Source: Methanothrix sp.
GTDB taxonomy: Archaea > Halobacteriota > Methanosarcinia > Methanotrichales > Methanotrichaceae
Direction: 5' to 3'
DNA: 64,000 nt
Assembly: GCA_963682135.1 (NCBI GenBank)
Contig: OY821645.1
Location: 2,816,001-2,880,000 of the forward strand
Both the position numbers and the translations under genes were made by a program. Of the stretch, positions 116 through 46,839 are shown piece by piece (the first letter of the stretch is position 1; the number at the start of each line of letters is the position of its first letter). Below the pieces are notes generated by a model. The model did not search any database. It was not told where the DNA came from and saw only the letters and a program-made list of their open reading frames with translations.

Positions 116-269
116 ATGCGAGACAAAAAGCTTTTTAAATCACTACTGAAATTAGGAAAGTACGTAAGAAATCAGTTGCTTGTTGACGGCTAAATCGGTC
201 ATCGTCTGAATTGAGGCTATGATAAGAGGGGATGACTGGATAGCCGGGGCTTTAGAGATTCTATTTTGA
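116..269 (+). promoter_or_regulatory. Repeated leader module copy A: BRE/TATA, hairpin and 16-codon sORF
   Basis: 183-256 is 70/74 identical to the reverse complement of 46700-46773, and weaker homology extends to 116/46839. AAAAAGCTTTTTAAAT at 125-140. Stem CGGCTA..TCGGTCATC / GATGACTGG.TAGCCG. ATG219..TGA269 encodes MIRGDDWIAGALEILF. Confidence 0.6.
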
Positions 270-298
270 TATAACCAAGACAACGAGTTTGATCATAT

Positions 299-612
299 CG
301 GTTTACGATTTTCACCACAAAGCTCACAAAGAATGCACAAAGTTTATTTAGCCGATTCGCAAGCAGAAGTTTTAATTATCAAGCTACTATTTTTACCGCA
401 GAAACGCAGAGTTAGCCGAGCCACGTAACTTCCCCTAATTAGCACCACTTGAAAAAGGATAGCTCACAACTTTTGAGTAGTAGTCGTCTCCGTCGTTCGT
501 CCTCCGCGTGCTCTGCGCCTCTGTGGTTTTATTCTCGTTAACCCCTGGTTATAATCATCGATCATGTGGACTAAAACCAACGGCTTACGACGATCACCAC
601 AAAGCCACAAAT
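299..612. repeat. Cluster of CACCACAAAG / CGCAGAG-type palindromic (REP-like) repeats
   Basis: GGTTTACGA..TCACCACAAAG units at ~299 and ~582. ACCGCAGAAACGCAGAG (395-411) pairs with CTCTGCGCCTCTGTGGT (511-527). Confidence 0.7.
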
Positions 613-658
613 AACTCTAAAAACATGAGTATTTATACAAAGAGTGTGGAATTTCTGT

Positions 659-1222
659 ATGATGAAGCTCATTGCATTTGTATCCGGCAAAGTCCAGGAG
701 GTTGGCTATCGAGCCAGGATAGTCGATATAGCCAATGCAATTGGCCTCAAGGGCATGGTCGAGAATCAAAAGGATGGCCGGGTGAAGATAATCGCTGAGG
801 GCGAGGATGAAAAGCTCAAATGGTTTGAGAGTGCCATAGATATAAAGAATACCTTGATCTATGTCTCGTCCATTGAAACGGTATATTCTCCTGCATGCAA
901 TGAGTTCGACAATTTCGGCAAGCTGGTGGTTAAAGGCGAGACCGACAGTAGGCTAGACACGGCTGCAGTCTATCTAAAAGAGCTCGTTTCTGTGGTCAAG
1001 AATATGAATGATAACCTGGGCGGCAAGATGGACCAAATGCTCGGCAAGCAGGATCAAATGATCGATAAACAGGATCAGATGCTCGGCAAGCAGGACGAAC
1101 TTCTGGATGAAGTCAGGGATATAAACGGGAAGTTCGACAGGGTGCTGGAAAATGATATCGTTGAATTGAAGAACGATATGGCCGAGGTAAAAGCCGCTCT
1201 GAGAGAAAAAGGAATAATCTAA
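659..1222 (+). CDS. acyP: Acylphosphatase-domain protein with C-terminal coiled-coil heptad repeats
   Basis: SGKVQEVGYR...GMVENQKDGRVKIIAEG acylphosphatase motif, then (DQMLGKQ)-type heptads. TATA-like TTTATACA at 632. Confidence 0.8.
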   Translation: MMKLIAFVSGKVQEVGYRARIVDIANAIGLKGMVENQKDGRVKIIAEGEDEKLKWFESAIDIKNTLIYVSSIETVYSPACNEFDNFGKLVVKGETDSRLDTAAVYLKELVSVVKNMNDNLGGKMDQMLGKQDQMIDKQDQMLGKQDELLDEVRDINGKFDRVLENDIVELKNDMAEVKAALREKGII

Positions 1223-1267
1223 TAGAGACTGCATGACTTAGTTTCCTTCCGCTTTTTGAGAATACTA

Positions 1268-1372
1268 TGGTTTACGACTTTCACCACAAAGGCACAAAGC
1301 CACAGAGGACGCACAAAGGGATTAAAATGGTTTTAGTCGTTTATGTGCCTTTGTGGTGATCGTCCGTAACCA
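1268..1372. repeat. Complete CACCACAAAGGCAC...GTGCCTTTGTGGTG palindromic repeat
   Basis: TGGTTTACGAC..TCACCACAAAGGCAC pairs with GTGCCTTTGTGGTGA..CGTAACCA. Same family as 299-612. Confidence 0.75.
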
Positions 1373-1469
1373 CTGAATATAATCCCCAATTCTCAAATCC
1401 TAAAGAAAGGTTACTTCCCATGCATACTATTAATCCCTCCCAAATACCAAACCGCAGCGAGGCTATATC

Positions 1470-2159
1470 TTGTCTGCTCTGGATCGGGGCATTGACCTGG
1501 TCATAGGCTCGCGGTTCTTCAGAGGGAACGGCCAGGAGGTTCCCACCTATCGCAAGGTTGGCATGAAGGTTCTGGATACCACCATCAACTTCCTGGGGGG
1601 CCTTTCTGTCACCGACACCCAGAGCGGCTTTCGCGCCTACGGAAAGCGGGCGATAGACTGCATTTGCATTGATGACGACGGCATGTCTGCCGGCTCGGAG
1701 ATACTTCTTCAGGCCAAGGATAACCGGCTGAAGGTAGAAGTGGTGGAGATTCATTGCAGCTACGCTGTGGAGAAGGCCTCGAAGCAGAATCCGGTGAGCC
1801 ACGGTGTCAAAGTGCTCTTGATCTTGCTGCAGGATATGGAACTGAGAAGGCCGCTGTACTATTTCACGCTGCCGGGGATGATATTTGCGGCGGTGGGAAT
1901 TGGCATAGGTCTGGAGCTGCTCAGGGTCTTTTATCATGGCGGGCAGCTCAGCTATGGTCTCACCATTCTGATGATACTGACGACTCTGGTGGGGTCATTC
2001 ATGGCTTTTACGGGGATTATTCTGCATGCCATCTCCAAGCTGATCGATCAATCCATGAAGCGGATGGATGCTTCTCGGAGGGTGAGGACGGAGCTTAGCT
2101 CGGGCGGGGTGACACATGAGAATCGCAGTGATATTGGGAACGCGGCCGGAGATAATTAA
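1470..2159 (+). pseudogene. 5'-truncated GT2 (DPM1-like) glycosyltransferase
   Basis: Begins mid-domain (DLVIGSRF...DTQSGFRAY) with two C-terminal TM helices. The N-terminal IPAYNE/DDGS region is missing. Confidence 0.7.
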
Positions 2160-3201
2160 GATGGCACCGGTGATCAGGGAGTGCCGACGAAGGGGGCTGG
2201 ATCATTTCGTGCTGCATACCGGGCAGCACTACTCCTACGAGATGGACCGGGTATTCTTTGAGCAGCTTGAGATTCCTCCGGCGGAGTTCAATCTGGATGC
2301 AGGATCCGGCACTCATGCCGATCAGACAGGCCGGATCATGACGGGCATCGAGAAGGTGCTGATGAAGACCGAGCCGGATGTGGTCCTGGTGCAGGGGGAT
2401 ACGAATACGGTTCTGGCCGGTGCACTGGCGGCCTCGAAGCTGCATATCAAGGTTGGGCACGTGGAGGCTGGGCTGTGCAGCTACGACCGGAACATGCCTG
2501 AGGAGATCAACCGGATTGTAGCAGATCATATTTCTGATTACCTGTTTGCTCCAACGGAAAATTCCAAATCGAATCTGATAAAAGAGGGAATCGCTGAAGA
2601 GAAGATATCCGTCACGGGAAACACCATTGTTGATTCAGTCTACCAGAATAGAGAGATAGCTGAGAGAAAGGTCAATGTGCTCAAGGATCTGGGGCTGAAG
2701 CCAAAGGAATATTTTCTGGTAACAGCTCACCGGGCGGAGAATGTTGATAATAGAGCCAGGCTGAAAGAGATTCTCAAAGGTTTGGAGCTGATTAGGTGCG
2801 AGTTTGGTTTGCCTGTTATCTTTCCCATGCATCCTCGGACTCGAAAGATGGTAAATGAATTCGGGCTGGGCCTTGACGGCATCAGGGCAATAGAGCCAAT
2901 GGGTTTTCTGGAGTTTCTGCAACTGGAGGCCAATGCCAGGCTGGCTTTGACCGACTCGGGAGGGGTGCAGGAGGAGACATGCATCTTGGGTGTGCCGTGC
3001 GTGACGCTGCGGGAGAATACGGAGAGGCCGGAGACAGTGGATGTTAAATCTAATATCCTTGCTGGGGCTGATGGTGGGACGATTCTGGAAAAGGCAAAGC
3101 AAATCCTGCAGCAAAGCAATAGCTGGAAGAACCCATTCGGAGATGGCAATGCGGGGAGAACAATTATAAGGCATATCGTGCCGCATGAACTCAGCAATTA
3201 G
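2116..3201 (+). CDS. wecB: UDP-N-acetylglucosamine 2-epimerase (non-hydrolysing)
   Basis: GTRPEIIKM, HTGQH, QGDTNT, HVEAGL, TDSGGVQEE and TERPE motifs. Confidence 0.95.
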   Translation: MRIAVILGTRPEIIKMAPVIRECRRRGLDHFVLHTGQHYSYEMDRVFFEQLEIPPAEFNLDAGSGTHADQTGRIMTGIEKVLMKTEPDVVLVQGDTNTVLAGALAASKLHIKVGHVEAGLCSYDRNMPEEINRIVADHISDYLFAPTENSKSNLIKEGIAEEKISVTGNTIVDSVYQNREIAERKVNVLKDLGLKPKEYFLVTAHRAENVDNRARLKEILKGLELIRCEFGLPVIFPMHPRTRKMVNEFGLGLDGIRAIEPMGFLEFLQLEANARLALTDSGGVQEETCILGVPCVTLRENTERPETVDVKSNILAGADGGTILEKAKQILQQSNSWKNPFGDGNAGRTIIRHIVPHELSN

Positions 3202-3240
3202 TTAGAATAATTATACTATTATTATACGGAGTTTTATTTC

Positions 3241-4224
3241 ATGAATATATTAGATGAAAAAAAAATTTTGATAACTGGCGGCACAGGTTCATTCGGCAAT
3301 GCTTTCATAGATTTTGCTCAGGATTATGATACAAAATTTGTCGTCTTCAGCCGGGATGAAAAGAAGCAGCATGATATGTATATTGAGCGGATGAATGATA
3401 ATATCGCCTATGTAGTCGGAGATATACGCGACAAGGGCAAGTTATTGAAGTATTTCAAGGACGTTGATTACATTCTGCATGCTGCTGCTTTAAAGCATGT
3501 TCCAACCGGAGAAAATTTCCCCGAAGAAGTCATAAAGACAAATATTCTCGGCACGCAAAATGTCATAGACGCCGCGGAAGAATGCGGCGTCGAAAAAATC
3601 GTGAATCTTAGCACAGATAAGGCAGTGTATCCTATAAATGCTTATGGAATGAGCAAAGCATTGGCTGAAAAATTGATCAGTGCTCACAATGGCAACACCA
3701 CATGCATGAGCTTAAGATATGGAAATGTTTTGGGCTCGAGAGGGTCTGTCATTCCCTTGTTCCTGGGCCAAATTAATAATAATAAGCCAATGACTATCAC
3801 AAATTATGACATGACCCGTTTTTTATTACCATTAAACAATGCGGTTTCCCTGGCGCTCAAATGCCTTGAAGTAGGGAATAAGGGCGATCTTTTTGTAATC
3901 AAGCCCCCAGCATCTAGCGTGCGCGCGCTAGTGGATGCATTTGAACTGCATTTCCATAAGCAATTGGAGCAGAAACTTATTGGGGTCAGACCTGGCGAAA
4001 AGATGGATGAGACGCTATTGACCCCCGAAGAGATAATCCGATCTTCAACCATAAAGCAGAATGGAATTATTTATGCCAGGATATCCAGACTGGAAGCGAA
4101 TATTGGGGACTATTTCTACAAGGGCGATGACTTTAAGCCATCTGAGCCATTTACTTCTGCCAATACAATTCAATTGGATGCTGCACAGGTTTTGGATACC
4201 ATTCGTCAGGCGGGCTTGCTATAA
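3241..4224 (+). CDS. fnlA: UDP-GlcNAc 4,6-dehydratase/epimerase (FnlA/WbjB/CapE-like)
   Basis: TGGTGSFG, FSRDEKKQ, HAAALKHVP, STDKAVYPINAYGMSK, RYGNVLGSRGSV. Confidence 0.88.
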   Translation: MNILDEKKILITGGTGSFGNAFIDFAQDYDTKFVVFSRDEKKQHDMYIERMNDNIAYVVGDIRDKGKLLKYFKDVDYILHAAALKHVPTGENFPEEVIKTNILGTQNVIDAAEECGVEKIVNLSTDKAVYPINAYGMSKALAEKLISAHNGNTTCMSLRYGNVLGSRGSVIPLFLGQINNNKPMTITNYDMTRFLLPLNNAVSLALKCLEVGNKGDLFVIKPPASSVRALVDAFELHFHKQLEQKLIGVRPGEKMDETLLTPEEIIRSSTIKQNGIIYARISRLEANIGDYFYKGDDFKPSEPFTSANTIQLDAAQVLDTIRQAGLL

Positions 4225-4880
4225 AGACTGGAATAACCGGCAGCAAAGGGTTTATAGGCAGTCATCTGACCAAGCATTTGCATGATCCATTATTATTCAA
4301 AGGGGATCTGACAAATATAAGAGATGTCTGTGAGTTCGTCAGCGGCTGTGACAGAATTTACCATCTTGCTGGAAAGAATAGAGAGCAACCTGGAGAAATA
4401 CTCAAGAATAATATCGTATCAACATCCAATTTGATTCTTGCTTGCAAGATCAAGAGAGTAGATCCCGAGATAATTTTTGCATCATCTCAACAGGTTATTT
4501 GGAACAGCGACTCTGAATATGGATTTGTGAAGAGCGTTGAAGAAGAGATCGTAAAAAAGGCTAATAAATGGTGCATATTCAGAATTCCCAATGTTTATGG
4601 ACCGGGATGCAAGCCGTTTTACAATTCCGTGATTGCGACGTTCTGCTATCAGATTTCAAAAGGGGAAAGCGTTACCATCCACGATTCATCAGTAAAGCGT
4701 GAATTCATATTCGTTGATGATTTGGTGGAGCGACTTCTCGATCCGGGATTTAATTCGTTGAAATTGATAAATGGCGAGACCATAACCGTTGGAGAAATTC
4801 ATTCCTTTTTGACGGATAAATTAGGTAGACACAAAAAGCTGGAGAAATGCTTGCAGTCATATAAGCAATTGGCGGATTAG
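4221..4880 (+). CDS. fnlB: FnlB/WbjC N-terminal reductase domain (start codon ATA or lost)
   Basis: In-frame KTGITGSKGFIG Rossmann motif from 4221, upstream of the ORF-track start 4278. RIPNVYGPGCKPFYNSVIATFC is typical of WbjC/CapF. Confidence 0.75.
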   Translation: MKTGITGSKGFIGSHLTKHLHDPLLFKGDLTNIRDVCEFVSGCDRIYHLAGKNREQPGEILKNNIVSTSNLILACKIKRVDPEIIFASSQQVIWNSDSEYGFVKSVEEEIVKKANKWCIFRIPNVYGPGCKPFYNSVIATFCYQISKGESVTIHDSSVKREFIFVDDLVERLLDPGFNSLKLINGETITVGEIHSFLTDKLGRHKKLEKCLQSYKQLAD

Positions 4881-5246
4881 ATGTATCCAATTCATAAAAA
4901 TAAAACGGGATTATTTCAGGAGCTGGCCAGAACCAAAGATGTGAAATTCGGCCAGATCAGTCTGCTGGTTATCAAATCAGGATGCTCACGAGGCGGTCAC
5001 TACCACACCAGAAAAGAGGAATGGTTTTGCTGTATCCGGGGACAATGCAGAATGGACTTGCAGAATATTCATTCGCTGGCAACTAAGGACATATTATTTG
5101 ATGAGGCGACAAGAGAGTTCATTAAAGTCGAGCCTTTTTGGAGTCACACTTTGACCAACATAAGTGATGAAAAAGCATGTGACATTATCATAATCATAAG
5201 TGAAGAATATAATGAATTCGACCCAGATACTTTCAAATTTGAGTGA
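4881..5246 (+). CDS. Stand-alone cupin, FnlB/WbjC C-terminal epimerase domain
   Basis: GQIS...RGGHYHTRKEEWF...PDT motifs of the CapF/WbjC cupin. Confidence 0.8.
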   Translation: MYPIHKNKTGLFQELARTKDVKFGQISLLVIKSGCSRGGHYHTRKEEWFCCIRGQCRMDLQNIHSLATKDILFDEATREFIKVEPFWSHTLTNISDEKACDIIIIISEEYNEFDPDTFKFE

Positions 5247-5257
5247 TTAGGGGATTG

Positions 5258-6400
5258 ATGTCCGAACTAAAGGTAATGACCATAATGGGCACCAGGCCCG
5301 AGATCATCCGCTTATCGGAAACTATTAAGCGATTAGATAAATATACAAACCATATTCTGGTACACACCAATCAGAACTATGATTATGAGTTGAACAAAGT
5401 CTTTTTTGAGGAGCTCAATTTAAGAAATCCGGATTATCTTCTGGATGTCAAGTCCGCTACAATCGGAGAACAGATAGGAAAGATACTGACCCAAACAGAG
5501 AAGGTCATGATAGATGAAAAGCCGGATGCAATTCTTATTCTGGGAGACACAAATAGTGCATTATCCTGCATAGTAGCTAAGAGATTGAAGATACCAATTT
5601 TTCATATGGAAGCCGGGAACAGATGCTTCGACGATAGAGTCCCGGAAGAGATCAACCGGAGAATAGTTGATCATACATCCGACATTAACATGCCTTATAC
5701 TGAGCATGCTCGCAGAAATCTCTTGCGGGAAGGATTGAGCCCGGAAATCATTTTTGTAACCGGCTCGCCGATGGCAGAAGTACTCAAAGTAAATATGGAA
5801 AAAATTGAAGGATCATCAATATTACAAAAACTTAATTTGGAAAAGGATAGGTATTTCTTAATTAGTATACATCGAGAGGAAAATGTTGATACTATAAGTA
5901 ATCTAAAAATAATATTAGATACTCTAAATTTAATAGCAAATAAATATGGTTATCCTCTAATAATATCTACGCATCCTAGAACTCAAAAACGTATCGATGA
6001 GTTAAAGATTATAAAGAACGACCTGATGCATTTTCACAAGCCATTCGGCATGTTTGATTTCATCAAGTTACAGAAAAATGCCTACTGTACGATATCTGAT
6101 AGCGGGACTATTCATGAGGATGCCGGTATTATGGGGATCCCTGCATTGGTAATTAGAGAAAGCTCTGAACGACCGGAGGCTTTCGATATGGGTAATGTCA
6201 TCCTCACAGGAATTAATTCTCAACAAATCCTTCAATCAATTTATGTTGTAAGAAATCAGTACGACGAGGGCATTAGATTTTCAATACCAGATGATTATCA
6301 GGATATTAATGTCTCTAATAAGGTGATACGTTTAATAATCGGATTGAACAAAATATTACTAAATAAAAAATATTATATTGAACTGCACTCAATCAGATAG
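5258..6400 (+). CDS. fnlC: UDP-2-acetamido-2,6-dideoxy-hexose 2-epimerase (FnlC/WbjD)
   Basis: GTRPEIIRLS, HTNQNYDYELN, HMEAGNRCFD, PEEINRRIVDH, SDSGTI. Confidence 0.88.
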   Translation: MSELKVMTIMGTRPEIIRLSETIKRLDKYTNHILVHTNQNYDYELNKVFFEELNLRNPDYLLDVKSATIGEQIGKILTQTEKVMIDEKPDAILILGDTNSALSCIVAKRLKIPIFHMEAGNRCFDDRVPEEINRRIVDHTSDINMPYTEHARRNLLREGLSPEIIFVTGSPMAEVLKVNMEKIEGSSILQKLNLEKDRYFLISIHREENVDTISNLKIILDTLNLIANKYGYPLIISTHPRTQKRIDELKIIKNDLMHFHKPFGMFDFIKLQKNAYCTISDSGTIHEDAGIMGIPALVIRESSERPEAFDMGNVILTGINSQQILQSIYVVRNQYDEGIRFSIPDDYQDINVSNKVIRLIIGLNKILLNKKYYIELHSIR

Positions 6401-6438
6401 CTATACGCCAAAATTGCATAAGTAGTGAGCTGCTAAAT

Positions 6439-7830
6439 ATGTCTCTAAATACGATTCTAATTAACCCTTCCTGGGATACAAAATATCCTCAACCTCCACT
6501 GGGACTTGCAAGCTTAGCTGCGGTCTTAGAGACGAATGGTTATTCAGTTAAAGTTATAGATGCAAATGCATTGCGGCTCTCAGAACAGGGTGTTATAGAG
6601 CTTGTGGAGGACGCAGACGTTATTGGGATCACGGCAATGACCCCCATAATCAATTCAGCGATTAAGATTGCAAAGGGAATTAAGCAAGCCAACCCAAACA
6701 CGACAATAATCCTTGGCGGACCTCATGCAACTATATATTCAAAGGATATTTTAAAGAATATACCCGAGATAGATATAATCGTGAATGGGGAAGGCGAAGA
6801 TACAATTGTCGAGCTTTGTGAGGGACTGGAAGATAATAGCTTGGATGGAATTTATGGAATTACTTATCGAAAAGGAAATCAAGTTATAGAAAATCAATCC
6901 AGACCTCTAATAAACGACTTAGACACATTACCCTTTCTGGCATATCATCTTTTACCTATCAATAAATACAAATTGCATCCGCCGCATGGTAGAAAGTCCC
7001 CTTTGATGGCAATGCTTACAAGCAGAGGATGTCCCTATAATTGTATCTTCTGTTCTAAGTCTGTTTTTGGGAGCACATGGAGGGGCCAAAGTCCAAAAAG
7101 GATAGTAGATGAAATTGAGTTTCTCAGGGAAAAATTCAATATCAGGGAGATTGCCTTTTATGATGATTCATTTACGCTTAAAAGTAAAAAAATATTCCAA
7201 TTTACTGAAGAGCTAAAAAAACGGGATATTGATATTATTTGGACCTGTGAAACAAGAGTGAACTTAATTAATGAGGAAATGCTCAAGGCAATGAAAAATG
7301 CTGGTTGTTATATGATCGCATATGGGATCGAATCCGGGAACCAGTCGATTCTGTCTACCTTGAGAAAGAACATAACAACTGAACAAGTGCGATCTACAGT
7401 AGAGACGACACAAAAAGTTGGCATACGGACGGTTGGGTATTTCATGATAGGCTCGCCAGGAGAAACTACGGCAACTATACGTCAGACAATCAATTTTGCA
7501 AAGAGTCTTCCATTGGATTTTGCTCAGTTCTCTGTAACAATACCTTTTCCTGGCTCTGATCTTTATGATATATATTTTAGCAAATTCGATAAAGATCTCT
7601 GCTGGGATGATTTTATTTATGCACGTACTGACTCATTCGCACCACCCGTATTTGAAACTAGTAGGCTCTCTAAAAACGACCTAAGAAATTGGAATACAAC
7701 AGCATATAGCGAGTTTTATTTAAGGGCATCATATATATGGAATAGGTTCATTGGAATGAGGTCCGTAGGAGACCTCAAGACAAACATGACCGGCCTTCAA
7801 TTGTTCTTCGAAATGCGAGGCAGAAAGTAA
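6439..7830 (+). CDS. Cobalamin-binding radical SAM protein (class B methyltransferase-like)
   Basis: N-terminal PPLGLASLAA...GGPHAT B12 domain, SRGCPYNCIFC (CxxxCxxC), YGIESG. Confidence 0.9.
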   Translation: MSLNTILINPSWDTKYPQPPLGLASLAAVLETNGYSVKVIDANALRLSEQGVIELVEDADVIGITAMTPIINSAIKIAKGIKQANPNTTIILGGPHATIYSKDILKNIPEIDIIVNGEGEDTIVELCEGLEDNSLDGIYGITYRKGNQVIENQSRPLINDLDTLPFLAYHLLPINKYKLHPPHGRKSPLMAMLTSRGCPYNCIFCSKSVFGSTWRGQSPKRIVDEIEFLREKFNIREIAFYDDSFTLKSKKIFQFTEELKKRDIDIIWTCETRVNLINEEMLKAMKNAGCYMIAYGIESGNQSILSTLRKNITTEQVRSTVETTQKVGIRTVGYFMIGSPGETTATIRQTINFAKSLPLDFAQFSVTIPFPGSDLYDIYFSKFDKDLCWDDFIYARTDSFAPPVFETSRLSKNDLRNWNTTAYSEFYLRASYIWNRFIGMRSVGDLKTNMTGLQLFFEMRGRK

Positions 7831-37865: not shown

Positions 37866-38393
37866 TTAAAATATTTCAGTAAAAGAAGTATACAACCCAA
37901 AGTTGGATGGCGGTACTTTCGGCTTCTCTACCAGCCTCTTAACACCTCCATGCTCATCAAACTCCGCCACACCAAAACGCTGCGGATCATCTACCTCTGT
38001 TAGAAGAACGAGTGCATCAGGATCTAATTTTCGAAACTTCTCAGCATGCTTGGCGATCCCGCCTTTTATGATGTTGTCTCCCAGATACATGATGAACTCA
38101 TCATCGCCTAAAGAATCCTCGGAGATAAGAATGGTATGGGCCAGGCCCCTTGTCTCCCCCTGGTAGATGAACTCGATGTTGGCATCCCATTCTACGGAAT
38201 TTACGGTCTCGATTACCTGATCCTTGTTAGGCCCCAGAATTATGCCGATATCTTTGGCTCCGGCTTCGATAACGTCTTCGATTGGGTAGAAATGAATGGG
38301 CTTGTTGGCTACGGGGATGAACTGCTTCTGCTGGGAATGGGTTATGGGCCGCAGCCTGGTGCCATGGCCATCCGAAAGGATAAGGGCCTTCAT
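37866..38393 (-). pseudogene. rfbA: Truncated glucose-1-phosphate thymidylyltransferase
   Basis: MKALILSDGHGTRLRP (degenerate), YLGDN, LVEKP. Stops at about half length. Confidence 0.85.
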
Positions 38394-38437
38394 TTTTTAC
38401 CTCGCGTTTTCTATGCTTCAGTTTTGAAGCTTTTAGA

Positions 38438-39349: not shown

Positions 39350-39394
39350 TTATCCACCCGATACAAGTCAATTCTTTATTCTTTAGGTTTTTTC

Positions 39395-39416
39395 GTTCTC
39401 TGTGCCTCCGTGGTTC
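39395..39416. repeat. Half CTCTGTGCCTCCGTGGT palindromic repeat
   Basis: Same family as 395-527, at the rfbB / methyltransferase junction. Confidence 0.55.
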
Positions 39417-39454
39417 GCTATTTGCTGAGAACCCTTACACTTCGTCCTACCACG

Positions 39455-40514: not shown

Positions 40515-40659
40515 GAAAAGACTCCTATTATTATCTTATTGTTGCATAATTTTTGGAATCATACTTTTTGCGGATAAATCTCAGAGTTGCTGGAAGCGCA
40601 TGAAGGACGAACCCAGAGTCTTTAATATATACTCAAATAAGAAATCAGGACTATTTGGC

Positions 40660-43600
40660 CTAGCCTTTGTAGCCTAGCTCACGGGCCCTAGCTAAGGCTG
40701 CGTCTGATTCAGAAGAACGACTAAGAAAATAAAGAGCGTCGCTTTTTCCTTTCCAGGCATCTACATGTTTGGGATTCAGTTCAATTGCTTTCTCGAACGC
40801 CTCGATCGAATCATTATATTTTCGCTGGCTATTTAGAGCTCTGCCTTTTGCCGCCCAGTTGTTCGCGTCCCTTGGATTGAGTTCGATAGCCCTGTCATAT
40901 GCTTGAATCGATTCGTTCTTCCGTCCCAGGCTTGCTAGAGGATCTGCCTTGCTGATCCAGTAGCTCGTCTCTTTTGGATTCAGTTCAATCGCTTTCTCAA
41001 AAGCGTCGAGCGATTCGTTATATTTTCGCTGGCTATTTAGAGCTCTTCCTTTTGCCGCCCAGTTGTTCGCGTCCCTTGGATTGAGTTCGATAGCCCTGTC
41101 ATATGCTTGAATCGATTCGTTCTTCCGTCCCAGGCTTGCTAGAGGATCTGCTTTGCTGATCCAGTAGCTCGGTTCTTTTGGATTCAGCTCGATAGCTTTC
41201 TCGAATGCCTCGATCGACTCATTATATTTTCGTTGAGTATTGAGAGCTCTCCCTTTGGCTGCCCAGTTGTTAGCGTCCTTTGGATTGAGTTCGATAGCTC
41301 TGTCATATGCTTGAAGCGACTCGTTCTTCTGTCCCAGGCTTGCGAGGGGATCTGCCTTGCTGATCCAGTAGCTCGTCTCTTTTGGATTCAGTTCAATCGC
41401 TTTCTCAAAAGCGTCGAGCGATTCGTTATATTTTCGCTGGCTATTTAGAGCTCTTCCTTTTGCCGCCCAGTTGTTCGCGTCCCTTGGATTGAGTTCGATA
41501 GCCCTGTCATATGCTTGAATCGATTCGTTCTTCCGTCCCAGGCTTGCTAGAGGATCTGCTTTGCTGATCCAGTAGCTCGGTTCTTTTGGATTCAGCTCGA
41601 TAGCTTTCTCGAATGCCTCGATCGACTCATTATATTTTCGTTGAGTATTGAGAGCTCTCCCTTTGGCTGCCCAGTTGTTAGCGTCCTTTGGATTGAGTTC
41701 GATAGCTCTGTCATATGCTTGAATCGATTCGTTCTTCCGTCCCAGGCTTGCTAGAGGATCTGCTTTGCTGATCCAGTAGCTCGGTTCTTTTGGATTCAGC
41801 TCGATAGCTTTCTCGAATGCCTCGATCGACTCATTATATTTTCGTTGAGTATTGAGAGCTCTCCCTTTGGCTGCCCAGTTGTTAGCGTCCTTTGGATTGA
41901 GTTCGATAGCTCTGTCATATGCTTGAAGCGACTCGTTCTTCTGTCCCAGGCTTGCGAGGGGATCTGCTTTGCTGATCCAGTAGCTCTGTTCTTTTGGATT
42001 CAGCTCGATAGCTTTCTCGAATGCCTCGATCGACTCATTATATTTTCGTTGAGTATTGAGAGCTCTCCCTTTGGCTGCCCAGTTGTTAGCGTCCTTTGGA
42101 TTGAGTTCGATAGCTCTGTCATATGCTTGAAGCGACTCGTTCTTCTGTCCCAGGCTTGCGAGGGGATCTGCTTTGCTGATCCAGTAGCTCTGTTCTTTTG
42201 GATTCAGCTCGATAGCTTTCTCGAATGCCTCGATCGACTCATTATATTTTCGTTGAGTATTGAGAGCTCTCCCTTTGGCTGCCCAGTTGTTAGCGTCCTT
42301 TGGATTGAGTTCGATAGCTCTGTCATATGCTTGAAGCGACTCGTTCTTCTGTCCCAGGCTTGCGAGGGGATCTGCTTTGCTGATCCAGTAGCTCTGTTCT
42401 TTTGGATTCAGCTCGATAGCTTTCTCGAATGCCTCGATCGACTCATTATATTTTCGTTGAGTATTGAGAGCTCTCCCTTTGGCTGCCCAGTTGTTAGCGT
42501 CCTTTGGATTGAGTTCGATAGCTCTGTCATATGCTTGAAGCGACTCGTTCTTCTGTCCCAGGCTTGCGAGGGGATCTGCTTTGCTGATCCAGTAGCTCTG
42601 TTCTTTTGGATTCAGCTCGATAGCTTTCTCAAAGGCGTCGATCGATTCATTATATTTAGCTTGACGATTTAGAGCACTTCCTTTTGCGGCCCAGTTGTTA
42701 GCGTCTCTTGGATTGAGTTCGATAGCTCTGTCATATGCTTGAAGCGACTCGTTCTTCTGTCCCAGGCTTGCGAGGGGATCTGCTTTGCTGATCCAGTAGC
42801 TCTGTTCTTTTGGATTCAGCTCGATAGCTTTCTCAAAGGCGTCGATCGACTCATTATATTTTCGTTGAGTATTGAGAGCTCTCCCTTTGGCTGCCCAGTT
42901 GTTAGCGTCCTTTGGATTGAGTTCGATAGCTCTGTCATATGCTTGAAGCGACTCGTTCTTCTGTCCCAGGCTTGCGAGGGGATCTGCTTTGCTGATCCAG
43001 TAGCTCTGTTCTTTTGGATTCAGCTCGATAGCTTTCTCAAAAGCGTCGATCGATTCATTATATTTAGCTTGACGATTTAGAGCACTTCCTTTTGCGGCCC
43101 AGTTGTTAGCGTCTCTTGGATTGAGTTCGATAGCTCTGTCATATGCTTGAAGCGACTCGTTCTTTCGTCCCAGGCTTGCGAGGGGATCTGCTTTGCTGAT
43201 CCAGTAGCTCTGTTCTTTTGGATTCAGCTCGATAGCTTTCTCAAAGGCGTCGATCGACTCATTATATTTTCGTTGAGTATTGAGAGCTCTCCCTTTGGCT
43301 GCCCAGTTGTTAGCGTCCTTTGGATTGAGTTCGATAGCTCTGTCATATGCTTGAAGCGACTCGTTCTTCTGTCCCAGGCTTGCGAGGGGATCTGCTTTTC
43401 TGATCCAGTAGCTCTGTTCTTTTGGATTCAGCTCGATAGCTTTCTCAAAAGCGTCGATCGATTCATTATATTTAGCTTGACGATTTAGAGCACTTCCTTT
43501 TGCGGCCCAGTTGTTAGCGTCTCTTGGATTGAGTTCGATAGCTCTGTCATATGCTTGAAGCGACTCGTTCTTTCGTCCCAGGCTTGCGAGGGGATCTGCT

Positions 43601-46317
43601 TTGCTGATCCAGTAGCTCTGTTCTTTTGGATTCAGCTCGATAGCTTTCTCAAAGGCGTCGATCGACTCATTATATTTTCGTTGAGTATTGAGAGCTCTCC
43701 CTTTGGCTGCCCAGTTGTTAGCGTCCTTTGGATTGAGTTCGATAGCTCTGTCATATGCTTGAAGCGACTCGTTCTTCTGTCCCAGGCTTGCGAGGGGATC
43801 TGCCTTGCTGATCCAGTAGCTCGTCTCTTTTGGATTCAGTTCAATCGCTTTCTCAAAAGCGTCGAGCGATTCGTTATATTTTCGCTGGCTATTTAGAGCT
43901 CTTCCTTTGGCTGCCCAGTTGTTAGCGTCCCTTGGATTGAGTTCGATAGCCCTGTCATATGCTTGAATCGATTCGTTCTTCCGTCCCAGGCTTGCTAGAG
44001 GATCTGCCTTGCTGATCCAGTAGCTCGTCTCTTTTGGATTCAGTTCAATCGCTTTCTCAAAAGCGTCGATCGATTCGTTATATTTTCGCTGGCTATTTAG
44101 AGCTCTTCCTTTTGCGGCCCAGTTGTTCGCGTCCTTTGGATTGAGTTCGGTAGCTTTGTCATATGCTTGAAGCGACTCGTTCTTCTGTCCCAGGCTTGCG
44201 AGGGGATCTGCTTTGCTGATCCAGTAGCTCTGTTCTTTTGGATTCAGCTCGATAGCTTTCTCGAATGCCTCGATCGACTCATTATATTTTCGTTGAGTAT
44301 TGAGAGCTCTCCCTTTGGCTGCCCAGTTGTTAGCGTCCTTTGGATTGAGTTCGATAGCTCTGTCATATGCTTGAAGCGACTCGTTCTTCTGTCCCAGGCC
44401 TGCGAGGGGATCTGCTTTGCTGATCCAGTAGCTCTGTTCTTTTGGATTCAGCTCGATAGCTTTCTCAAAGGCGTCGATCGACTCATTATATTTTCGTTGA
44501 GTATTGAGAGCTCTCCCTTTGGCTGCCCAGTTGTTAGCGTCCTTTGGATTGAGTTCGATAGCTCTGTCATATGCTTGAAGCGACTCGTTCTTTCGTCCCA
44601 GGCCTGCGAGGGGATCTGCTTTGCTGATCCAGTAGCTCTGTTCTTTTGGATTCAGCTCGATAGCTTTCTCGAATGCCTCGATCGACTCATTATATTTAGC
44701 TTGACGATTTAGAGCACTTCCTTTTGCGGCCCAGTTGTTAGCGTCTCTTGGATTGAGTTCGATTGCGTTGTTATAAGCCTGAAGTGATTCGTTCTTCTTT
44801 CCCAGACTGGATAAGACGCCCGCCTTTGCACTCCAGTAGCTCGGTTCCCTGGGATTAAGCTTGATGGCTTTCTCGAAAGCATTGAGCGATTCATTATATT
44901 TTCTTTGACTATTGAGAACTCTACCTTTGCCCGCCCAATTATTTCCGTCTCTTGGATTGAGTTCGATTGCCCTGTCATAGGCCTTGAGTGACTCGTTGAT
45001 CTTCCTCTGGTTGAAAAGAGTCTGCCCTTTCGTAGACCAGGCATTGGGATCTGTTGGGTCTGTGGTATACTTTGGATTGCTTGCATAATCTGGATTTATC
45101 TTGATGGCTCTGTTATAAGCATCAATTGATTCACTGTAATTGCCCAGGTCTTCCAGAATTTCGCCCTTCTTGATCCATATGCTTGCATCCGTTGGATCTA
45201 ATTCGAAGGCTCTATCATACGCTGCGAATGATTCATTGTATCTGCCCAGCAAATAGCGGATATTTCCCGCATTTTTCCAAGCCGTTATATATTCCGGATT
45301 AATCTCGAGCGCATTTTCATAGTTCTCACTGGCCTCTTCCTTATTTCCCAGCATGCCAAGCATATCGCCCTTCTTATTCCAGGCCAGCGCATTTTTTGCG
45401 TCTATTTCTATTGAATGGTTGTAAGATTCGAGGGACTTATTATAATCACCCGTTCTTTCATAATTAAGGCCCTTGATGACCCATGCATTCGCATCTTTCG
45501 GATTATTAATATTATCTTTGTGCCCCGGATATTTTGCAGAAACCATTGTAGCTTTATCATATGCACTGGCCGCATCAGCATGCTTTTCTTGCAAGCTTTT
45601 CACATTGCCTTTGCCAATCCATGCCAGTGCCAGTTCCCGTTCCAGCCGGATGGCTTTCTCATAAGCTTGCAGGGATTCATTATGCATTCCTATGCTTTCT
45701 AGCGCGTTGCCTTTGCCATACCAGGCCATCGCCAATCTCGGATCTAACTCAATAGCTTTATCGTAAGCCTTAATCGAATCATTCTGCTTTTCCAGGGTTT
45801 CAAGCACATTGCCTTTGCCGTTCCAGGCCTGGGCAAATGTTGGATTCAATTCGATGGCCTTGTCATAGGCTCTGGCGGATTCGGCAAAGGATCCCAAATT
45901 TTGCAGTGCATCTCCCAGGCTGTTCCATGCATTCGCAGAATCCGCCTCCAGTTCAATAGCTTTGTTATAAGCATTGATGGAATCATCATACAAACCAAAC
46001 TCCAAGAACGCATTGCCCAGGTCACTCCATGCAGTTGCAGAATCCGGTTCCAGCTCGATAGCTTTTTCATAAGCTCTAATGGAATCATTATACAATCCTA
46101 TTTCCAGGAGCACATAACCTCTGTCGCTCCATGCCGCTGAAAGATTCGGATCTAACTCGATTGATTTATTATAAGCTTTGATGGCTTGGTCATAGGATCT
46201 TATCTTGGCAAAATCGTCTCCTATTTTAAGCCAATCACTGGATGAATATCCCTGAGCGGCCATCAAGGGACAAAGCGCGATTAGTGATATCAAAACCATG
46301 ATAAATATATACTTCAT
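40660..46317 (-). CDS. Giant secreted TPR protein (1885 aa)
   Basis: Signal peptide MKYIFIMVLISLIALCPLMAA and 34-aa TPR periodicity (W..KG..L....Y.ES..A...AIELNP). Confidence 0.92.
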   Translation of the reverse strand: MKYIFIMVLISLIALCPLMAAQGYSSSDWLKIGDDFAKIRSYDQAIKAYNKSIELDPNLSAAWSDRGYVLLEIGLYNDSIRAYEKAIELEPDSATAWSDLGNAFLEFGLYDDSINAYNKAIELEADSANAWNSLGDALQNLGSFAESARAYDKAIELNPTFAQAWNGKGNVLETLEKQNDSIKAYDKAIELDPRLAMAWYGKGNALESIGMHNESLQAYEKAIRLERELALAWIGKGNVKSLQEKHADAASAYDKATMVSAKYPGHKDNINNPKDANAWVIKGLNYERTGDYNKSLESYNHSIEIDAKNALAWNKKGDMLGMLGNKEEASENYENALEINPEYITAWKNAGNIRYLLGRYNESFAAYDRAFELDPTDASIWIKKGEILEDLGNYSESIDAYNRAIKINPDYASNPKYTTDPTDPNAWSTKGQTLFNQRKINESLKAYDRAIELNPRDGNNWAGKGRVLNSQRKYNESLNAFEKAIKLNPREPSYWSAKAGVLSSLGKKNESLQAYNNAIELNPRDANNWAAKGSALNRQAKYNESIEAFEKAIELNPKEQSYWISKADPLAGLGRKNESLQAYDRAIELNPKDANNWAAKGRALNTQRKYNESIDAFEKAIELNPKEQSYWISKADPLAGLGQKNESLQAYDRAIELNPKDANNWAAKGRALNTQRKYNESIEAFEKAIELNPKEQSYWISKADPLASLGQKNESLQAYDKATELNPKDANNWAAKGRALNSQRKYNESIDAFEKAIELNPKETSYWISKADPLASLGRKNESIQAYDRAIELNPRDANNWAAKGRALNSQRKYNESLDAFEKAIELNPKETSYWISKADPLASLGQKNESLQAYDRAIELNPKDANNWAAKGRALNTQRKYNESIDAFEKAIELNPKEQSYWISKADPLASLGRKNESLQAYDRAIELNPRDANNWAAKGSALNRQAKYNESIDAFEKAIELNPKEQSYWIRKADPLASLGQKNESLQAYDRAIELNPKDANNWAAKGRALNTQRKYNESIDAFEKAIELNPKEQSYWISKADPLASLGRKNESLQAYDRAIELNPRDANNWAAKGSALNRQAKYNESIDAFEKAIELNPKEQSYWISKADPLASLGQKNESLQAYDRAIELNPKDANNWAAKGRALNTQRKYNESIDAFEKAIELNPKEQSYWISKADPLASLGQKNESLQAYDRAIELNPRDANNWAAKGSALNRQAKYNESIDAFEKAIELNPKEQSYWISKADPLASLGQKNESLQAYDRAIELNPKDANNWAAKGRALNTQRKYNESIEAFEKAIELNPKEQSYWISKADPLASLGQKNESLQAYDRAIELNPKDANNWAAKGRALNTQRKYNESIEAFEKAIELNPKEQSYWISKADPLASLGQKNESLQAYDRAIELNPKDANNWAAKGRALNTQRKYNESIEAFEKAIELNPKEQSYWISKADPLASLGQKNESLQAYDRAIELNPKDANNWAAKGRALNTQRKYNESIEAFEKAIELNPKEPSYWISKADPLASLGRKNESIQAYDRAIELNPKDANNWAAKGRALNTQRKYNESIEAFEKAIELNPKEPSYWISKADPLASLGRKNESIQAYDRAIELNPRDANNWAAKGRALNSQRKYNESLDAFEKAIELNPKETSYWISKADPLASLGQKNESLQAYDRAIELNPKDANNWAAKGRALNTQRKYNESIEAFEKAIELNPKEPSYWISKADPLASLGRKNESIQAYDRAIELNPRDANNWAAKGRALNSQRKYNESLDAFEKAIELNPKETSYWISKADPLASLGRKNESIQAYDRAIELNPRDANNWAAKGRALNSQRKYNDSIEAFEKAIELNPKHVDAWKGKSDALYFLSRSSESDAALARARELGYKG
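40770..44770 (-). repeat. ~20 near-identical 204-bp tandem repeats (two TPRs each)
   Basis: Unit marker recurs every 204 bp from ~40825 to ~44701. Three alleles (NTQRK, NSQRK, NRQAK). Confidence 0.95.
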
Positions 46318-46395
46318 ATCGCACCTTAGGACTGGTACTCATCTTCACATCATGTTATCTGTGGTTGATAATAATAGCTATATAATAATTAACCG

Positions 46396-46493
46396 CTAAA
46401 ACTTCGGCTATCCAGTCATCCCTCTTATCATGGCCTCAATTCAGACGATGACCGATATAGCCGTCAATTGCAATTGTTTTCCTAGCTACTTTC
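46396..46493 (-). promoter_or_regulatory. Repeated leader module copy B (no TATA, sORF frameshifted)
   Basis: CGGCTATCCAGTCATCCCTCTTATCATGGCCTCAATTCAGACGATGACCGATATAGCCGTCAA, with homology continuing to ~46493. Confidence 0.55.
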
Positions 46494-46686
46494 TCAACGC
46501 ATGACTTTCCATGGCAAGCACCAGTCCTGCTTATCTCATCCTGAGAATTCTGCAGAATAAACGATTGACGGCCTTGGCCGGTCGCGGCCTTGAGCGACGC
46601 CCGAGGCATTGCGCGGGAGGCCAGCAGGCCGACTCGCGGCACCCCGGAAACAGATGCGCTGTAAATGTCTATATCAAATAGTCATA

Positions 46687-46839
46687 TTAAAAACAGATGT
46701 CTAAAGCCCCGGCTATCCAGTCATCCCCTCTTATCATGGCCTCAATTCAGACGATGACCGATATGGCAGTCAAGATCAACCGTTCTTCTTACCTGCTTTC
46801 CTATTTTCGGTAGTGAAATAAAAGGCTTTCGTCTCGCAT
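46687..46839 (-). promoter_or_regulatory. Repeated leader module copy C (BRE/TATA, hairpin, 16-codon sORF)
   Basis: Inverted copy of 116-269. GAAAGCCTTTTATTT on the minus strand. ATG46737..TAA46687 encodes MIRGDDWIAGALDICF. Confidence 0.6.

Follow-up and report, generated by a model that had tools for sequence, protein, structure and literature searches.

Why should one short sequence stand at the head of both arms of an archaeal glycan island, and what does it do there? This question is raised by a 64,000-nt stretch of Methanothrix sp. DNA, referred to below as the window. The two arms converge, as had been stated in the original prediction: ORFs on the plus strand extend to 21467, and those on the minus strand occupy 21454-46317. 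Based on ORF calls and Pfam searches, the plus-strand arm (644..21467) encodes UDP-GlcNAc 2-epimerases, Polysacc_synt_2 proteins, a B12-radical SAM enzyme, GT4s, a DegT aminotransferase, and DUF2206, together with IS debris, and the minus-strand arm (21454..46317) encodes GT2s, a UDP-glucose dehydrogenase, epimerases, NTP-transferases, an ABC-2 exporter pair, and methyltransferases. The plus-strand arm opens with a gene (659..1222, +) for an acylphosphatase-like domain (PF00708, E 7.9e-18) with a heptad-repeat tail, and the minus-strand arm with one (40660-46317, -) for a TPR protein of 1885 aa.

Three copies of the element in one island

Inverted copies of a leader had been placed at 116-256 and 46700-46839, and a repeat search recovered them as arms of 149 nt (127-275 and 46681-46829) that are 82% complementary. 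The conserved RNA motif lies at 184..256 on the plus strand (copy A; R1 95.5 bits, E 5.5e-28) and at 46700..46772 on the minus strand (copy B; R1 91.7 bits). These two differ at 4 of the 73 positions of the model span, in agreement with the core identity of 70/74 given earlier. The third copy that had been claimed was found as well: copy C (46395..46466, minus strand; R1 82.3 bits) is covered by two inverted matches, 183-230 against 46420-46467 (48 nt, 96%) and 229-260 against 46391-46422. It forms a direct repeat with copy B, located 306 nt upstream of it, and is itself 77 nt upstream of the start of the TPR gene.

A genome-wide BLAST search with 116-275 (3,043,341 bp searched) hit only three places, which were copies A, B, and C; the remaining six matches listed covered just 14-21 nt, with E values of at least 0.23. 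The covariance model likewise found three copies in the 3.04-Mb genome, all within the glycan island. A repeat of this kind goes far beyond what chance would give and, with only three places in the genome, is not a dispersed one. A MITE had been offered as an alternative, and the dispersal that it entails was not seen in these three copies, gathered in one island.

Folding of the copies bore out the claim that the hairpin belongs to the sense strand: copy A reached -26.0 kcal/mol (z -2.9) in the sense direction versus -15.1 kcal/mol in antisense, and copy C -25.2 versus -16.2 kcal/mol. Copy B folded at -17.8 kcal/mol (z +0.94), and the weakened stem base that had been ascribed to copy C was in fact assigned to the wrong copy, as it is the outer stem of copy B that is weakened. 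Copy C has a G-run that is 1 nt shorter, and the GCU of its 3' mini-hairpin is changed to GUU. A short ORF within the element (ATG at 219) was ruled out because copy C and distant copies carry frame-breaking indels.

Copy A is separated from the first gene of its arm by a 376-nt insert (257..632, +) that is absent from a relative, and one X4 RNA-library contig joins 256 directly to 633. At two loci of other genomes (L020 and L041), the motif is found just 18-30 nt from the ATG of the same acylphosphatase-like gene. The insert (taken as 257-640) did not seem to be a dispersed repeat, as it had only one 73-nt partial match elsewhere in the genome.

Structure and distribution of the RNA

The element contains a 7-bp stem, P1, with strong covariation among 89 distinct copies. 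In pairs counted on model-fitted alignments, which biases the count toward the model's own structure, 90.3% of the cells paired versus 67.6 +/- 1.1% in shuffles, with none of 500 shuffles reaching the observed value and slid controls giving 36-54%. Changes on both sides of a pair were observed in 169 cells in these 89 copies, against 58 +/- 6 expected, and 7 of the 10 pairs showed compensatory change. A smaller earlier set of 63 distinct copies had given 94.9% pairing versus 82.7%. G.U and U.G wobbles account for 153 of the 870 cells; they fit a sense-strand RNA only and have no meaning for duplex DNA. By both the covariation and the wobble cells, selection acts on the sense-strand RNA.

The stem of ~16 bp that the original prediction had taken as the conserved unit did not hold up as such. 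What is general is the 7-bp stem plus three inner pairs, and the outer 5-6 bp are clade-specific. On the plus strand of copy A, P1 pairs 197-203 with 231-237, the inner pairs join 205-207 to 227-229, the invariant core spans 206-229, and positions 187-192 and 241-246 make up the clade-specific outer stem. Inside P1, the invariant residues form two strands, CUGAAUUGA and, opposite it, RUGAUAAGAGG. A 3-bp mini-hairpin, P2 (AGC-N4-GCU; 242-244 with 249-251 in copy A), follows 3' of P1, and 89.1% of its cells pair, with almost no variation. A general outer stem (P0) was tried and rejected, the means being -11.0 kcal/mol with the copies' own flanks, -9.3 with shuffled flanks, and -9.9 with reversed flanks; outer pairing was clearly better than the controls in only 40 of 86 copies and was kept as a clade-specific feature.

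UUGA stands opposite UGAU in every one of the 89 copies, with residues that are invariant or nearly so. At the sequence level, this is an apical kink-turn signature, in which tandem G.A/A.G pairs of presumed geometry are followed by U.U. In a K-loop, a terminal loop replaces the canonical helix that lies beyond the bulge of a true kink-turn. Most copies have an apical loop of 5-8 nt. In five loci (L086, L087, L153, L178, and L194), an apical helix of 4 bp is followed by a 3-nt bulge and GA, variants with a 3-bp apical helix are found in L139, L137, and L172/L193, and in the Methanoperedens-type copies a real helix with a 3-nt bulge takes the place of the short loop. Such a bulge, beside tandem sheared G.A and A.G pairs, defines the kink-turn (PMC1874613). 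The conserved structure thus reads as a kink-turn/K-loop hairpin, a fold that we infer from the conserved residues.

The family is much wider than Methanothrix. With the covariance model, the motif was detected in 56 of 105 Methanotrichaceae genomes (9 of 16 genera), at 1 to 8 copies per genome in relatives, and in three further families of the class; the counts by class-level family group were 39/74, 2/4, 1/2, 0/3, and 1/67, the last of these being marginal. Records labelled Methanoperedens, ANME-1, Methanocellales, Hydrothermarchaeota, and Thermoplasmata also carry the motif, and in this wider range 46 of the 80 loci listed were scored with the covariance model. Several bacterial matches were taken as chance: the core-pattern matches in Planomicrobium, Oscillospiraceae, and Paludibacter consisted of loop words only, the one in Bacillus had no model match at E<=1, and the weak full-span matches in Saprospiraceae (19.0 bits) and Lewinellaceae (19.8 bits) had no convincing P1/P2.

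When the whole window was searched with Rfam 15 at the gathering threshold, only the SSU rRNA at 62979-64000 was matched and nothing on the element, and a permissive scan (E<=10; loci L001 and L002) found nothing on the element either. The RNA family is real and undescribed, and none of the copies tested matched a family in Rfam 15.

Neighboring genes and a zinc-ribbon protein

The original prediction was of a cis-acting leader or RNA family tied to glycan operons, and a structured family with a glycan context is indeed what emerged, its copies pointing toward glycan genes in each of the lineages covered. According to Pfam, 27 of the 50 downstream ORFs in other genomes are of glycan or cell-surface types (eight acylphosphatase-like, six NAD-epimerase, five TPR, five GT2, and one each of flippase, PMT_2, and HEAT), 11/50 are toxin-antitoxin or IS genes, and 12/50 are without a family. 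In distant lineages, glycan types make up 11 of the 23 ORFs found downstream (three UDPG-DH, two GT2, two deacetylases, and one each of Epimerase_2, GT4, flippase, and DUF1616).

The proposed sense orientation was also recovered. Scored against Pfam-supported genes, the in-island copies share their direction with the next such gene in 7/7 cases in genome G092 and in 3/4 cases in genome G066. Nearest-ORF calling was too noisy for this purpose and returned 17 'opposite-strand' neighbors, mostly ORFs of 90-150 aa without families. The flanks of the copies are unrelated between lineages. Tandem copies 206-346 nt apart recur, as seen with copies B and C of the window and at five other loci (L026, L027, L029, L134, and L154).

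Other lineages have the element directly 3' of a small zinc-ribbon gene and not close to a promoter. This conserved Cys/His zinc-ribbon ORF, of ~120 aa, ends 0-24 nt into the 5' flank of the motif in 18 of 24 loci. Motif and protein abut in three genomes (G134, G167, and G139), and in 14 Methanotrichaceae genomes they abut or are at most 2.3 kb apart on one strand. The source genome encodes one homolog of 119 aa (E 1.4e-41), in an unlinked gene (402304-402654 of the genome) with no adjoining motif. Among the Methanotrichaceae, 49 genomes have both motif and protein, 7 the motif only (these are 70-93% complete), 17 the protein only, and 32 neither, a co-occurrence that is inflated by genome completeness and shared ancestry. 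At the class level, the protein was found in 48/74, 3/4, 1/2, 0/3, and 0/67 genomes of the same family groups; both parts are present in f1, f4, and f5, and they were not found together in f2 and f3 (motif 1/67, marginal). A zinc-ribbon protein that adjoins the motif and shares its phyletic pattern is new here, and it may be the partner of the RNA.

This protein combines a zinc ribbon (residues 1-45) with a helical domain and belongs to no family. Pfam returned no family and one weak DUF2674 match (E 0.0076), NCBIfam returned none, and the best ESM Atlas value, 0.86, was below the level taken as more than a lead. Foldseek had no match at E<=0.001, the weak matches being to NrdR- and TFIIB-type chains (E 0.2-0.5). 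A VIA search with residues 46-119 only gave best Z values of 7.0 for cyclin D3, 6.9 for 8ity_V, 6.5 for NrdR, and 6.0-6.2 for TFIIB/TFB, which are in a range common for helical domains. A dedicated L7Ae paralog was not found in the source genome, which has just two ordinary L7Ae-family genes, and neither was a specialized Spt5/NusG paralog, PF03439 matching one gene in this genome (Spt5-NGN).

Transcription and possible functions of the element

BRE/TATA-like boxes were found upstream of copy A (124..140, +) and copy B (46813..46830, -; aligned with the box of copy A), the two copies at which promoters were said to be kept. Copy C, said to be promoterless, has no match to the BRE/TATA pattern used and no promoter-like box. 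A strict BRE+TATA pattern is located 36-90 nt upstream of 41/67 copies, versus 248 of 5000 random windows (5%) and 8/65 antisense-side controls; the second members of tandem pairs are without promoters. In this genus, the element is thus probably transcribed from its own BRE/TATA box, and elsewhere it would be transcribed as the tail of the zinc-ribbon gene.

A T4 run after copy A (264..267, +) may act as an oligo-U signal for archaeal termination or pausing, and a T5 run follows copy B (46689..46693, -). Runs of at least four T are found within 40 nt of 35/67 copies versus 17% of random windows. In a diverse set, U-runs were found at 37/87 copies and A-runs, likewise frequent there, at 25/87, so that AT-richness explains part of the U-run signal.

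We consider that the element is probably a cis-acting, protein-dependent leader that controls read-through or translation of the glycan transcription units. P1 would close an irregular helix of invariant residues, with the putative kink-turn at its apex, and would be followed by P2 and often by a U-run. L7Ae and/or the ~120-aa zinc-ribbon protein would bind the folded element, and this binding would set the amount of transcription or translation into the glycan genes downstream. Control might be exerted at the U-run (by attenuation or antitermination) or at a nearby ribosome-binding site, and as an outcome several transcription units of one island would be co-ordinated. We propose more tentatively, as one possible form of this control, that the kink-turn leader brings a dedicated zinc-ribbon and cyclin-like factor, which recalls the N-terminal half of TFB/TFIIB, to RNAP during transcription, resulting in read-through of oligo-U terminators across long glycan operons.

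A metabolite-sensing riboswitch is unlikely. The invariant internal loop below the kink-turn would then be a small-molecule pocket, for instance for a nucleotide-sugar or lipid-carrier intermediate, the kink-turn would be architecture only, as kink-turns are in several bacterial riboswitches, and P2 with the U-run or the ribosome-binding site would be the expression platform. As expected of an aptamer, invariant loop residues are held within covarying stems upstream of related genes; several copies per genome precede one functional gene class, and tandem pairs recur. In some clades, base pairing between the 5' flank and the P2 region also offers a possible alternative structure, which is strong in L089, L073, and L071 (-19 to -21 kcal/mol versus -10 to -13 with shuffled flanks). 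However, such pairing is not general (the 40/86 copies noted above), the kink-turn and a second tandem G.A account for nearly all invariant residues and leave little for a pocket, and elements so closely linked to a small protein of their own are more typically protein-dependent.

It is quite improbable that the copies are stand-alone sRNA genes, each with its own promoter and U-run terminator, whose RNA of ~100-130 nt acts in trans or in an RNP and which just happen to reside in glycan islands. The upstream boxes and the T-run that comes soon after many copies of genus g1 would suit such genes, and two short RNA-library contigs, X1 (132 nt, 125-256) and X4 (121 nt, 133-244), span just the element. 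These contigs include promoter letters, however, so DNA carry-over or upstream read-through is possible and they do not mark clean sRNA ends; assembled contigs from four runs are weak evidence, from which neither expression levels nor transcript starts or ends can be derived, and the lack of contig cover in these runs over 1-88 and parts of 265-440 proves nothing. An AT-rich, TATA-like stretch is found 3' of many copies in this genus and could serve the downstream genes, in which case some copies may be short transcripts in their own right; in the plus-strand arm, the first gene may be leaderless and read from a promoter of its own. Against this, at least six lineages have only 15-60 nt between motif and start codon, which leaves no room for another promoter, and SD-like sequence lies within this gap at L121, L020, L028, L075, L083, and L071. 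Elsewhere, the element comes straight after a coding gene and lacks its own promoter, the second copies of tandem pairs have none either, and orientation follows the downstream genes in G092 and G066.

We give similarly little weight to an RNA-stability or processing element, that is, an L7Ae-bound kink-turn hairpin, close to the 5' end or between cistrons, that shields long glycan mRNAs from exonucleases or marks a processing site and has no part in regulation. The kink-turn/K-loop signature and the occurrence of the element at 5' leaders as well as between genes agree with this idea, as does the reported binding of L7Ae to kink-turns of archaeal mRNAs (PMC5539422), but it leaves unexplained why the element keeps to glycan clusters and shares its distribution with a dedicated zinc-ribbon protein, and why the lower loop and P2 are invariant. 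Finally, a DNA-level feature (ends of an invertible or mobile island, a MITE, or an operator for a DNA-binding zinc-ribbon regulator) is largely refuted and hardly credible, for although the inverted 149-nt arms flank 46 kb containing IS debris and the zinc-ribbon protein weakly resembles DNA- or RNAP-binding regulators (Foldseek E 0.2-0.5; VIA Z 6-7), the three copies are all inside the island, the arms are only 82% identical, relatives have 1 to 8 copies co-directional with gene runs, the flanks are unrelated across lineages, and compensatory changes and G.U cells (153/870) would be meaningless in duplex DNA.

The protein-dependent leader that we favor has partial counterparts. L7Ae-bound kink-turns occur in archaeal mRNA 5' UTRs, namely in the Sulfolobus l7ae and nop5-fibrillarin transcripts (PMC5539422; PMC6298567). 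As in these, a leader hairpin with a kink-turn signature is found here upstream of a coding region, and control of translation by the bound protein would be a plausible outcome. Unlike the Sulfolobus kink-turns, whose targets are the very genes for sRNP and ribosomal proteins, the present element is glycan-linked, is part of a much larger module (second tandem G.A, P1, and P2), and is co-distributed with an unrelated zinc-ribbon protein, L7Ae binding being only putative here.

The C'/D' K-loop of archaeal box C/D sRNAs pairs CUGA-like and UGAU-like boxes through G.A, A.G, and U.U next to a short loop, and these sRNAs also have terminal C and D boxes and guide spacers of roughly 12 nt. Facing boxes closed by a short loop are likewise found in the present element. 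A box C/D sRNA identity was rejected, as the element is without terminal C/D boxes or guide spacers, P1 is a covarying helix and not a guide, and, unlike those sRNAs, the element sits in mRNA leaders. The only match to the Rfam C/D models was to sR60, outside the element and at 16.9 bits against a gathering score of 50.

In bacteria, JUMPStart/ops-RfaH and the Bacillus EAR RNA involve cis elements in the leaders of long polysaccharide operons or inside them and are linked to terminator read-through. The present element shares with them its position in a polysaccharide-operon leader, whereas its hosts are archaea with a different termination machinery. The ops element is DNA read by a NusG paralog, and no such paralog was found in this genome; processive antitermination of the ops/RfaH type is not supported, as it requires a NusG/Spt5 paralog in addition to the single PF03439 gene. 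Bacteroides UpxY/UpxZ control capsular polysaccharide operons, and there a small dedicated regulator gene and a leader stand at the start of each locus (PMC11685472), several loci per genome are co-ordinated, and control is exerted on transcript elongation into long glycan operons, as it would be here. UpxY is a NusG paralog, in contrast to the candidate factor of the present system with its zinc ribbon, helical domain, and lack of a family, and the cis element here is, unlike that of UpxY, a structured RNA.

To our knowledge, very few cis-regulatory RNAs are known in archaea. For the cell-surface glycan genes of archaea, the sources covered, which include passages of PMC5737381, mention no operon-specific leader, attenuator, or antiterminator. 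The element described here has strong covariation support, is tied to one pathway, and comes with a candidate protein partner without a family; it occurs in environmentally dominant methanogens and methane oxidizers. Methanosarcinaceae-type genomes seem to lack both parts (motif 1/67, marginal; protein 0/67), and the genetically tractable Methanosarcina could therefore be a clean heterologous host. How archaea co-ordinate long, mosaic glycan islands thereby becomes testable. If the tentative read-through model is true, the element would represent an archaeal, RNA-guided, operon-specific elongation control that does the work of RfaH/UpxY or of phage N-nut with entirely different parts, and this elongation-control system would extend across the Methanotrichales, Methanoperedens, ANME-1, Methanocellales, Hydrothermarchaeota, and Thermoplasmata.

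Copies of the element and the genes of the island

Three copies of a structured RNA element were found in the window: copy A at 184-256 (+), copy B at 46700-46772 (-) and copy C at 46395-46466 (-). The repeat search and BLAST both confirmed the original observation that A is inverted relative to B and C. In the repeat search, the inverted arms around A and B spanned 127-275 and 46681-46829 (149 nt, 82% complementary), and B and C formed a direct repeat with a spacing of 306 nt; the cores of A and B match at all but 4 of 73 positions. These are the only copies in the genome, a single contig of 3,043,341 bp of which the window is 2816001-2880000, whether searched by BLAST or with the covariance model; the remaining BLAST matches, six listed, were of 14-21 nt with E >= 0.23. 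The folding energy of the sense versus the antisense strand was -26.0 versus -15.1 kcal/mol for copy A and -25.2 versus -16.2 kcal/mol for copy C. The weakened outer stem, earlier assigned to copy C, belongs to copy B (-17.8 kcal/mol, z +0.94).

ORF and Pfam analyses gave the same two convergent arms as before, of plus-strand (644-21467) and minus-strand (21454-46317) genes. They encode sugar-nucleotide enzymes, glycosyltransferases, an ABC-2 exporter pair and a flippase-type membrane protein, together with IS debris (9952-11278, 18700-20181 and 29866-30783, within both arms). In this debris, 37-nt inverted repeats (I4) enclose split ISL3 transposase ORFs, and there are also an IS110-family gene and fragments of IS66 and IS110; several glycan genes next to the debris look truncated (e.g., 4278-4880 and 39643-40212). 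The first gene of the minus arm (40660-46317, -) encodes an 1885-aa protein made nearly entirely of TPR units, and its DNA contains about 50 tandem 102-nt units at 40752-45057 (204-nt super-period, 85-97% identity). TPR genes also follow the leader at five loci in relatives (L015, L017, L026, L027 and L034). The acylphosphatase-like gene at 659-1222 (+) has a heptad-repeat tail with 21-nt repeats at 1009-1111; its family has 17 matches in the genome, including three immediately to the left of the window. Between copy A and the first gene lies a 376-nt insert (257-632) with CACAAAG-rich words, which also occur 3' of leader copies in relatives; a 62-nt inverted partner of it (I3) follows the gene at 1327-1388, and within this genome the insert does not recur as a dispersed repeat. 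At the other end of the window, 62979-64000 (+) holds the 5' part (1028 positions) of an archaeal SSU rRNA gene that is cut by the window end.

Sixteen RNA-labelled public runs contained 5-10% of the sampled words of window positions 1-1300, and four of these were compared with the window, as assembled contigs only. The acylphosphatase-like gene was the part covered in all four. Short contigs over the element came from two studies (X1, 125-256; X4, 133-244) and, as they include promoter letters and such libraries are able to carry DNA, we claim no transcript start, end or level. One X4 contig joins position 256 to 633, showing that the 376-nt stretch separating the element from the first gene is missing in a relative.

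Structure and range of the RNA

Covariation was assessed over 89 distinct copies from all lineages, in an alignment fitted to the covariance model, which favors the structure of that model. Standard pairs filled 90.3% of cells, compared with 67.6 +/- 1.1% after shuffling (0/500 shuffles reached the observed value) and 36-54% when the partners were slid by 1-3 columns. Changes on both sides of a pair were seen in 169 cells, where 58 +/- 6 were expected, and 7 of the 10 pairs showed compensatory change. RNAalifold on a MAFFT alignment, independent of the model, returned the same stem with compensatory changes in 5/9 pairs. A G.U or U.G pair, which would be A.C on the opposite strand, occupied 153 of 870 cells; selection on the element therefore acts on the sense RNA.

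Within the 7-bp stem (P1), nearly all residues are invariant (CUGAAUUGA in the 5' strand, RUGAUAAGAGG in the 3' strand). One pairing scheme, proposed on sequence grounds, joins these residues in an irregular but unbroken helix that contains two tandem G.A/A.G steps; the apical step (UUGA versus UGAU, with an adjacent U.U) reads as a kink-turn signature. Most copies close this step with a 5-8-nt loop (a K-loop); the Methanoperedens-type loci L086, L087, L153, L178 and L194 close it with a 4-bp helix and then a 3-nt bulge, the canonical kink-turn layout, with G-C to G.U changes between copies. The mini-hairpin AGC-N4-GCU 3' of the stem (P2) is paired in 89.1% of cells and, because it hardly varies, draws its support from conservation rather than covariation. 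The longer stem of about 16 bp originally proposed is present in this genus and is clade-specific: outer pairing averaged -11.0 kcal/mol with own flanks versus -9.3 with shuffled ones, was clearly better in 40/86 copies, and in another genus (g4) involves another sequence, one matching the P2 region. Nine Methanoperedens-type loci (L086, L087, L129, L139, L148, L153, L177, L178 and L194) have two GC-rich hairpins 40-110 nt 3' of the motif, well conserved with little covariation (2/12 pairs), which could belong to the same leader.

With the 81-nt core as query, BLAST detected the element in 36 of 101 family genomes. The covariance model R1, built from 36 aligned copies (73 positions, 10 pairs), matched 56/105 family genomes, including 36 of the 64 with at least 90% completeness, and 9 of 16 genera, with 1 to 8 copies per genome mostly clustered within tens of kb. 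In the class-level sample, R1 detected the motif in families f4 (2/4) and f5 (1/2), in none of the f2 genomes sampled (0/3), and in one of 67 f3 genomes, a marginal match without P1. When all species genomes were scanned for the invariant core, at least 118 stretches matched, with 80 loci among the matches listed; R1 was used to score the 46 of these not labeled Methanothrix, Methanotrichaceae or Methanosaeta. Full-length matches with their own stems were found among the listed loci in records labeled Methanoperedens, ANME-1/Methanophagales, Methanocellales, Hydrothermarchaeota, Thermoplasmata and unclassified Methanosarcinales, in agreement with the predicted RNA family, and the listed Planomicrobium and Bacillus isolates had loop words only or no R1 match. 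Three high-scoring contigs, in MAGs labeled Propionicimonas (L117, 80 bits), Caldisericales (L119, 65 bits) and Bacteroidales (L151, 28 bits), have neighbors of archaeal type, including a flippase, UDP-glucose dehydrogenase and, at L151, the archaeal zinc-ribbon gene described below, and are probably mis-binned archaeal contigs.

A literature search, which included passages of the survey PMC5737381, found no description of the element or of an archaeal glycan-operon leader, although the supplementary motif files of that survey may list it. Rfam 15 had no family on the element, either across the whole window at the gathering threshold or in loci L001 and L002 at E <= 10. The motifs of the survey are generally included in Rfam, the collection in which the element had no match.

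Promoters and downstream genes

A strict BRE+TATA pattern was present 36-90 nt 5' of 41/67 Methanotrichaceae copies, compared with 248/5000 random windows and 8/65 antisense-side controls. Several of the 26 copies lacking it have looser TATA-like boxes by eye, and others are the second of tandem pairs (copy C, L026:1705, L027:1234 and L029:1704). In other lineages, the motif is preceded by coding sequence, a conserved ORF of about 110-130 aa whose stop falls 0-24 nt into the 5' flank of R1, before P1, in 18/24 loci. These positions imply transcription either from a promoter belonging to the element or as the tail of that upstream gene.

We then took the first substantial same-strand ORF downstream of the 68 unique Methanotrichaceae copies, which left 50 distinct cases after removing 11 without a candidate in the fetched flank, 3 tandem-pair duplicates, 1 of insufficient length and the 3 from the window. 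Glycan or cell-surface genes made up 27/50 by Pfam: acylphosphatase-like (8, one weak; the commonest gene directly 3' of the leader), NAD-epimerase (6), TPR (5), GT2 (5), flippase (1), PMT_2 (1) and HEAT (1). Toxin-antitoxin or IS-type genes, apparently inserted, accounted for another 11, and the remaining 12 had no Pfam family. Glycan enzymes were 11/23 of the downstream ORFs in distant lineages; in a Hydrothermarchaeota record, a GT2 gene starts 15 nt 3' of the motif, behind an SD-like sequence.

The predicted agreement in orientation was also observed. The next Pfam-supported gene was on the same strand for 7/7 in-island copies in genome G092, laid out like the window with plus-strand copies in the left arm and minus-strand copies in the right, and for 3/4 copies in G066, where the one exception is next to an IS66 transposase gene. 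As copy orientation follows the gene runs, the inverted repeat flanking the island results from two sets of transcription units that converge and are each headed by the same leader.

A candidate partner protein and a proposed mechanism

The ORF 5' of the motif encodes a zinc-ribbon protein with invariant or nearly invariant Cys/His residues (C-x-H-x2-C ... C-x2-C). Its AlphaFold model shows four helices after a beta-hairpin zinc ribbon (pLDDT 83.9, pTM 0.69). It belongs to no Pfam or NCBIfam family, Foldseek gave no significant match (best NrdR and TFIIB-type chains, E 0.2-0.5), and VIA with residues 46-119 only gave non-significant Z scores of 6-7 to cyclin/TFIIB-core repeats and NrdR ATP-cones. 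Thirteen homologous matches in genus g1 contain one in-frame TAG or TAA, with an open frame of 119-122 aa; this codon may simply be the terminal stop, which the match has run past.

Across 105 family genomes, 49 had both motif and protein, 7 the motif only (these are 70-93% complete), 17 the protein only and 32 neither. At the class level, f1, f4 and f5 contain both, f2 yielded neither, and the protein was found in 0/67 f3 genomes. Gene and motif adjoin in G134, G167 and G139 and in four Methanotrichaceae genomes (G024, G054, G055 and G092, contig 5); in ten more of that family, the motif lies 137-2216 nt 3' of the gene on the same strand. The present genome has one homologue (E 1.4e-41, genome position 402304-402654), unlinked to the island and with no adjoining motif. 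The protein is a strong lead for the partner of the motif, not proof, because kinship and completeness inflate co-occurrence tables.

A U-run may also take part in control, although the evidence is only suggestive: a run of T >= 4 occurs in 37/87 copies versus 18% of random windows and one of T >= 5 in 17/87 versus 7%, with A-runs in 25/87 of the same windows. The genome has a single Spt5-NGN gene, with no RfaH-like paralogue found, and only the usual two L7Ae-family genes. Among the closest known systems are the L7Ae-bound kink-turns of archaeal 5' UTRs, as outlined in PMC5539422, which the element resembles in a kink-turn read here from its letters. The closest in function are the bacterial polysaccharide operons with a leader and a dedicated factor (PMC11685472).

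We favor a cis-acting, protein-dependent leader over four rival readings: riboswitch, stand-alone sRNA, stability element and DNA-level repeat. The folded kink-turn element would be bound by L7Ae, the zinc-ribbon protein or both, and binding would set read-through at the following U-run or access to a nearby ribosome-binding site. Several units of one glycan island would thereby be tied together.
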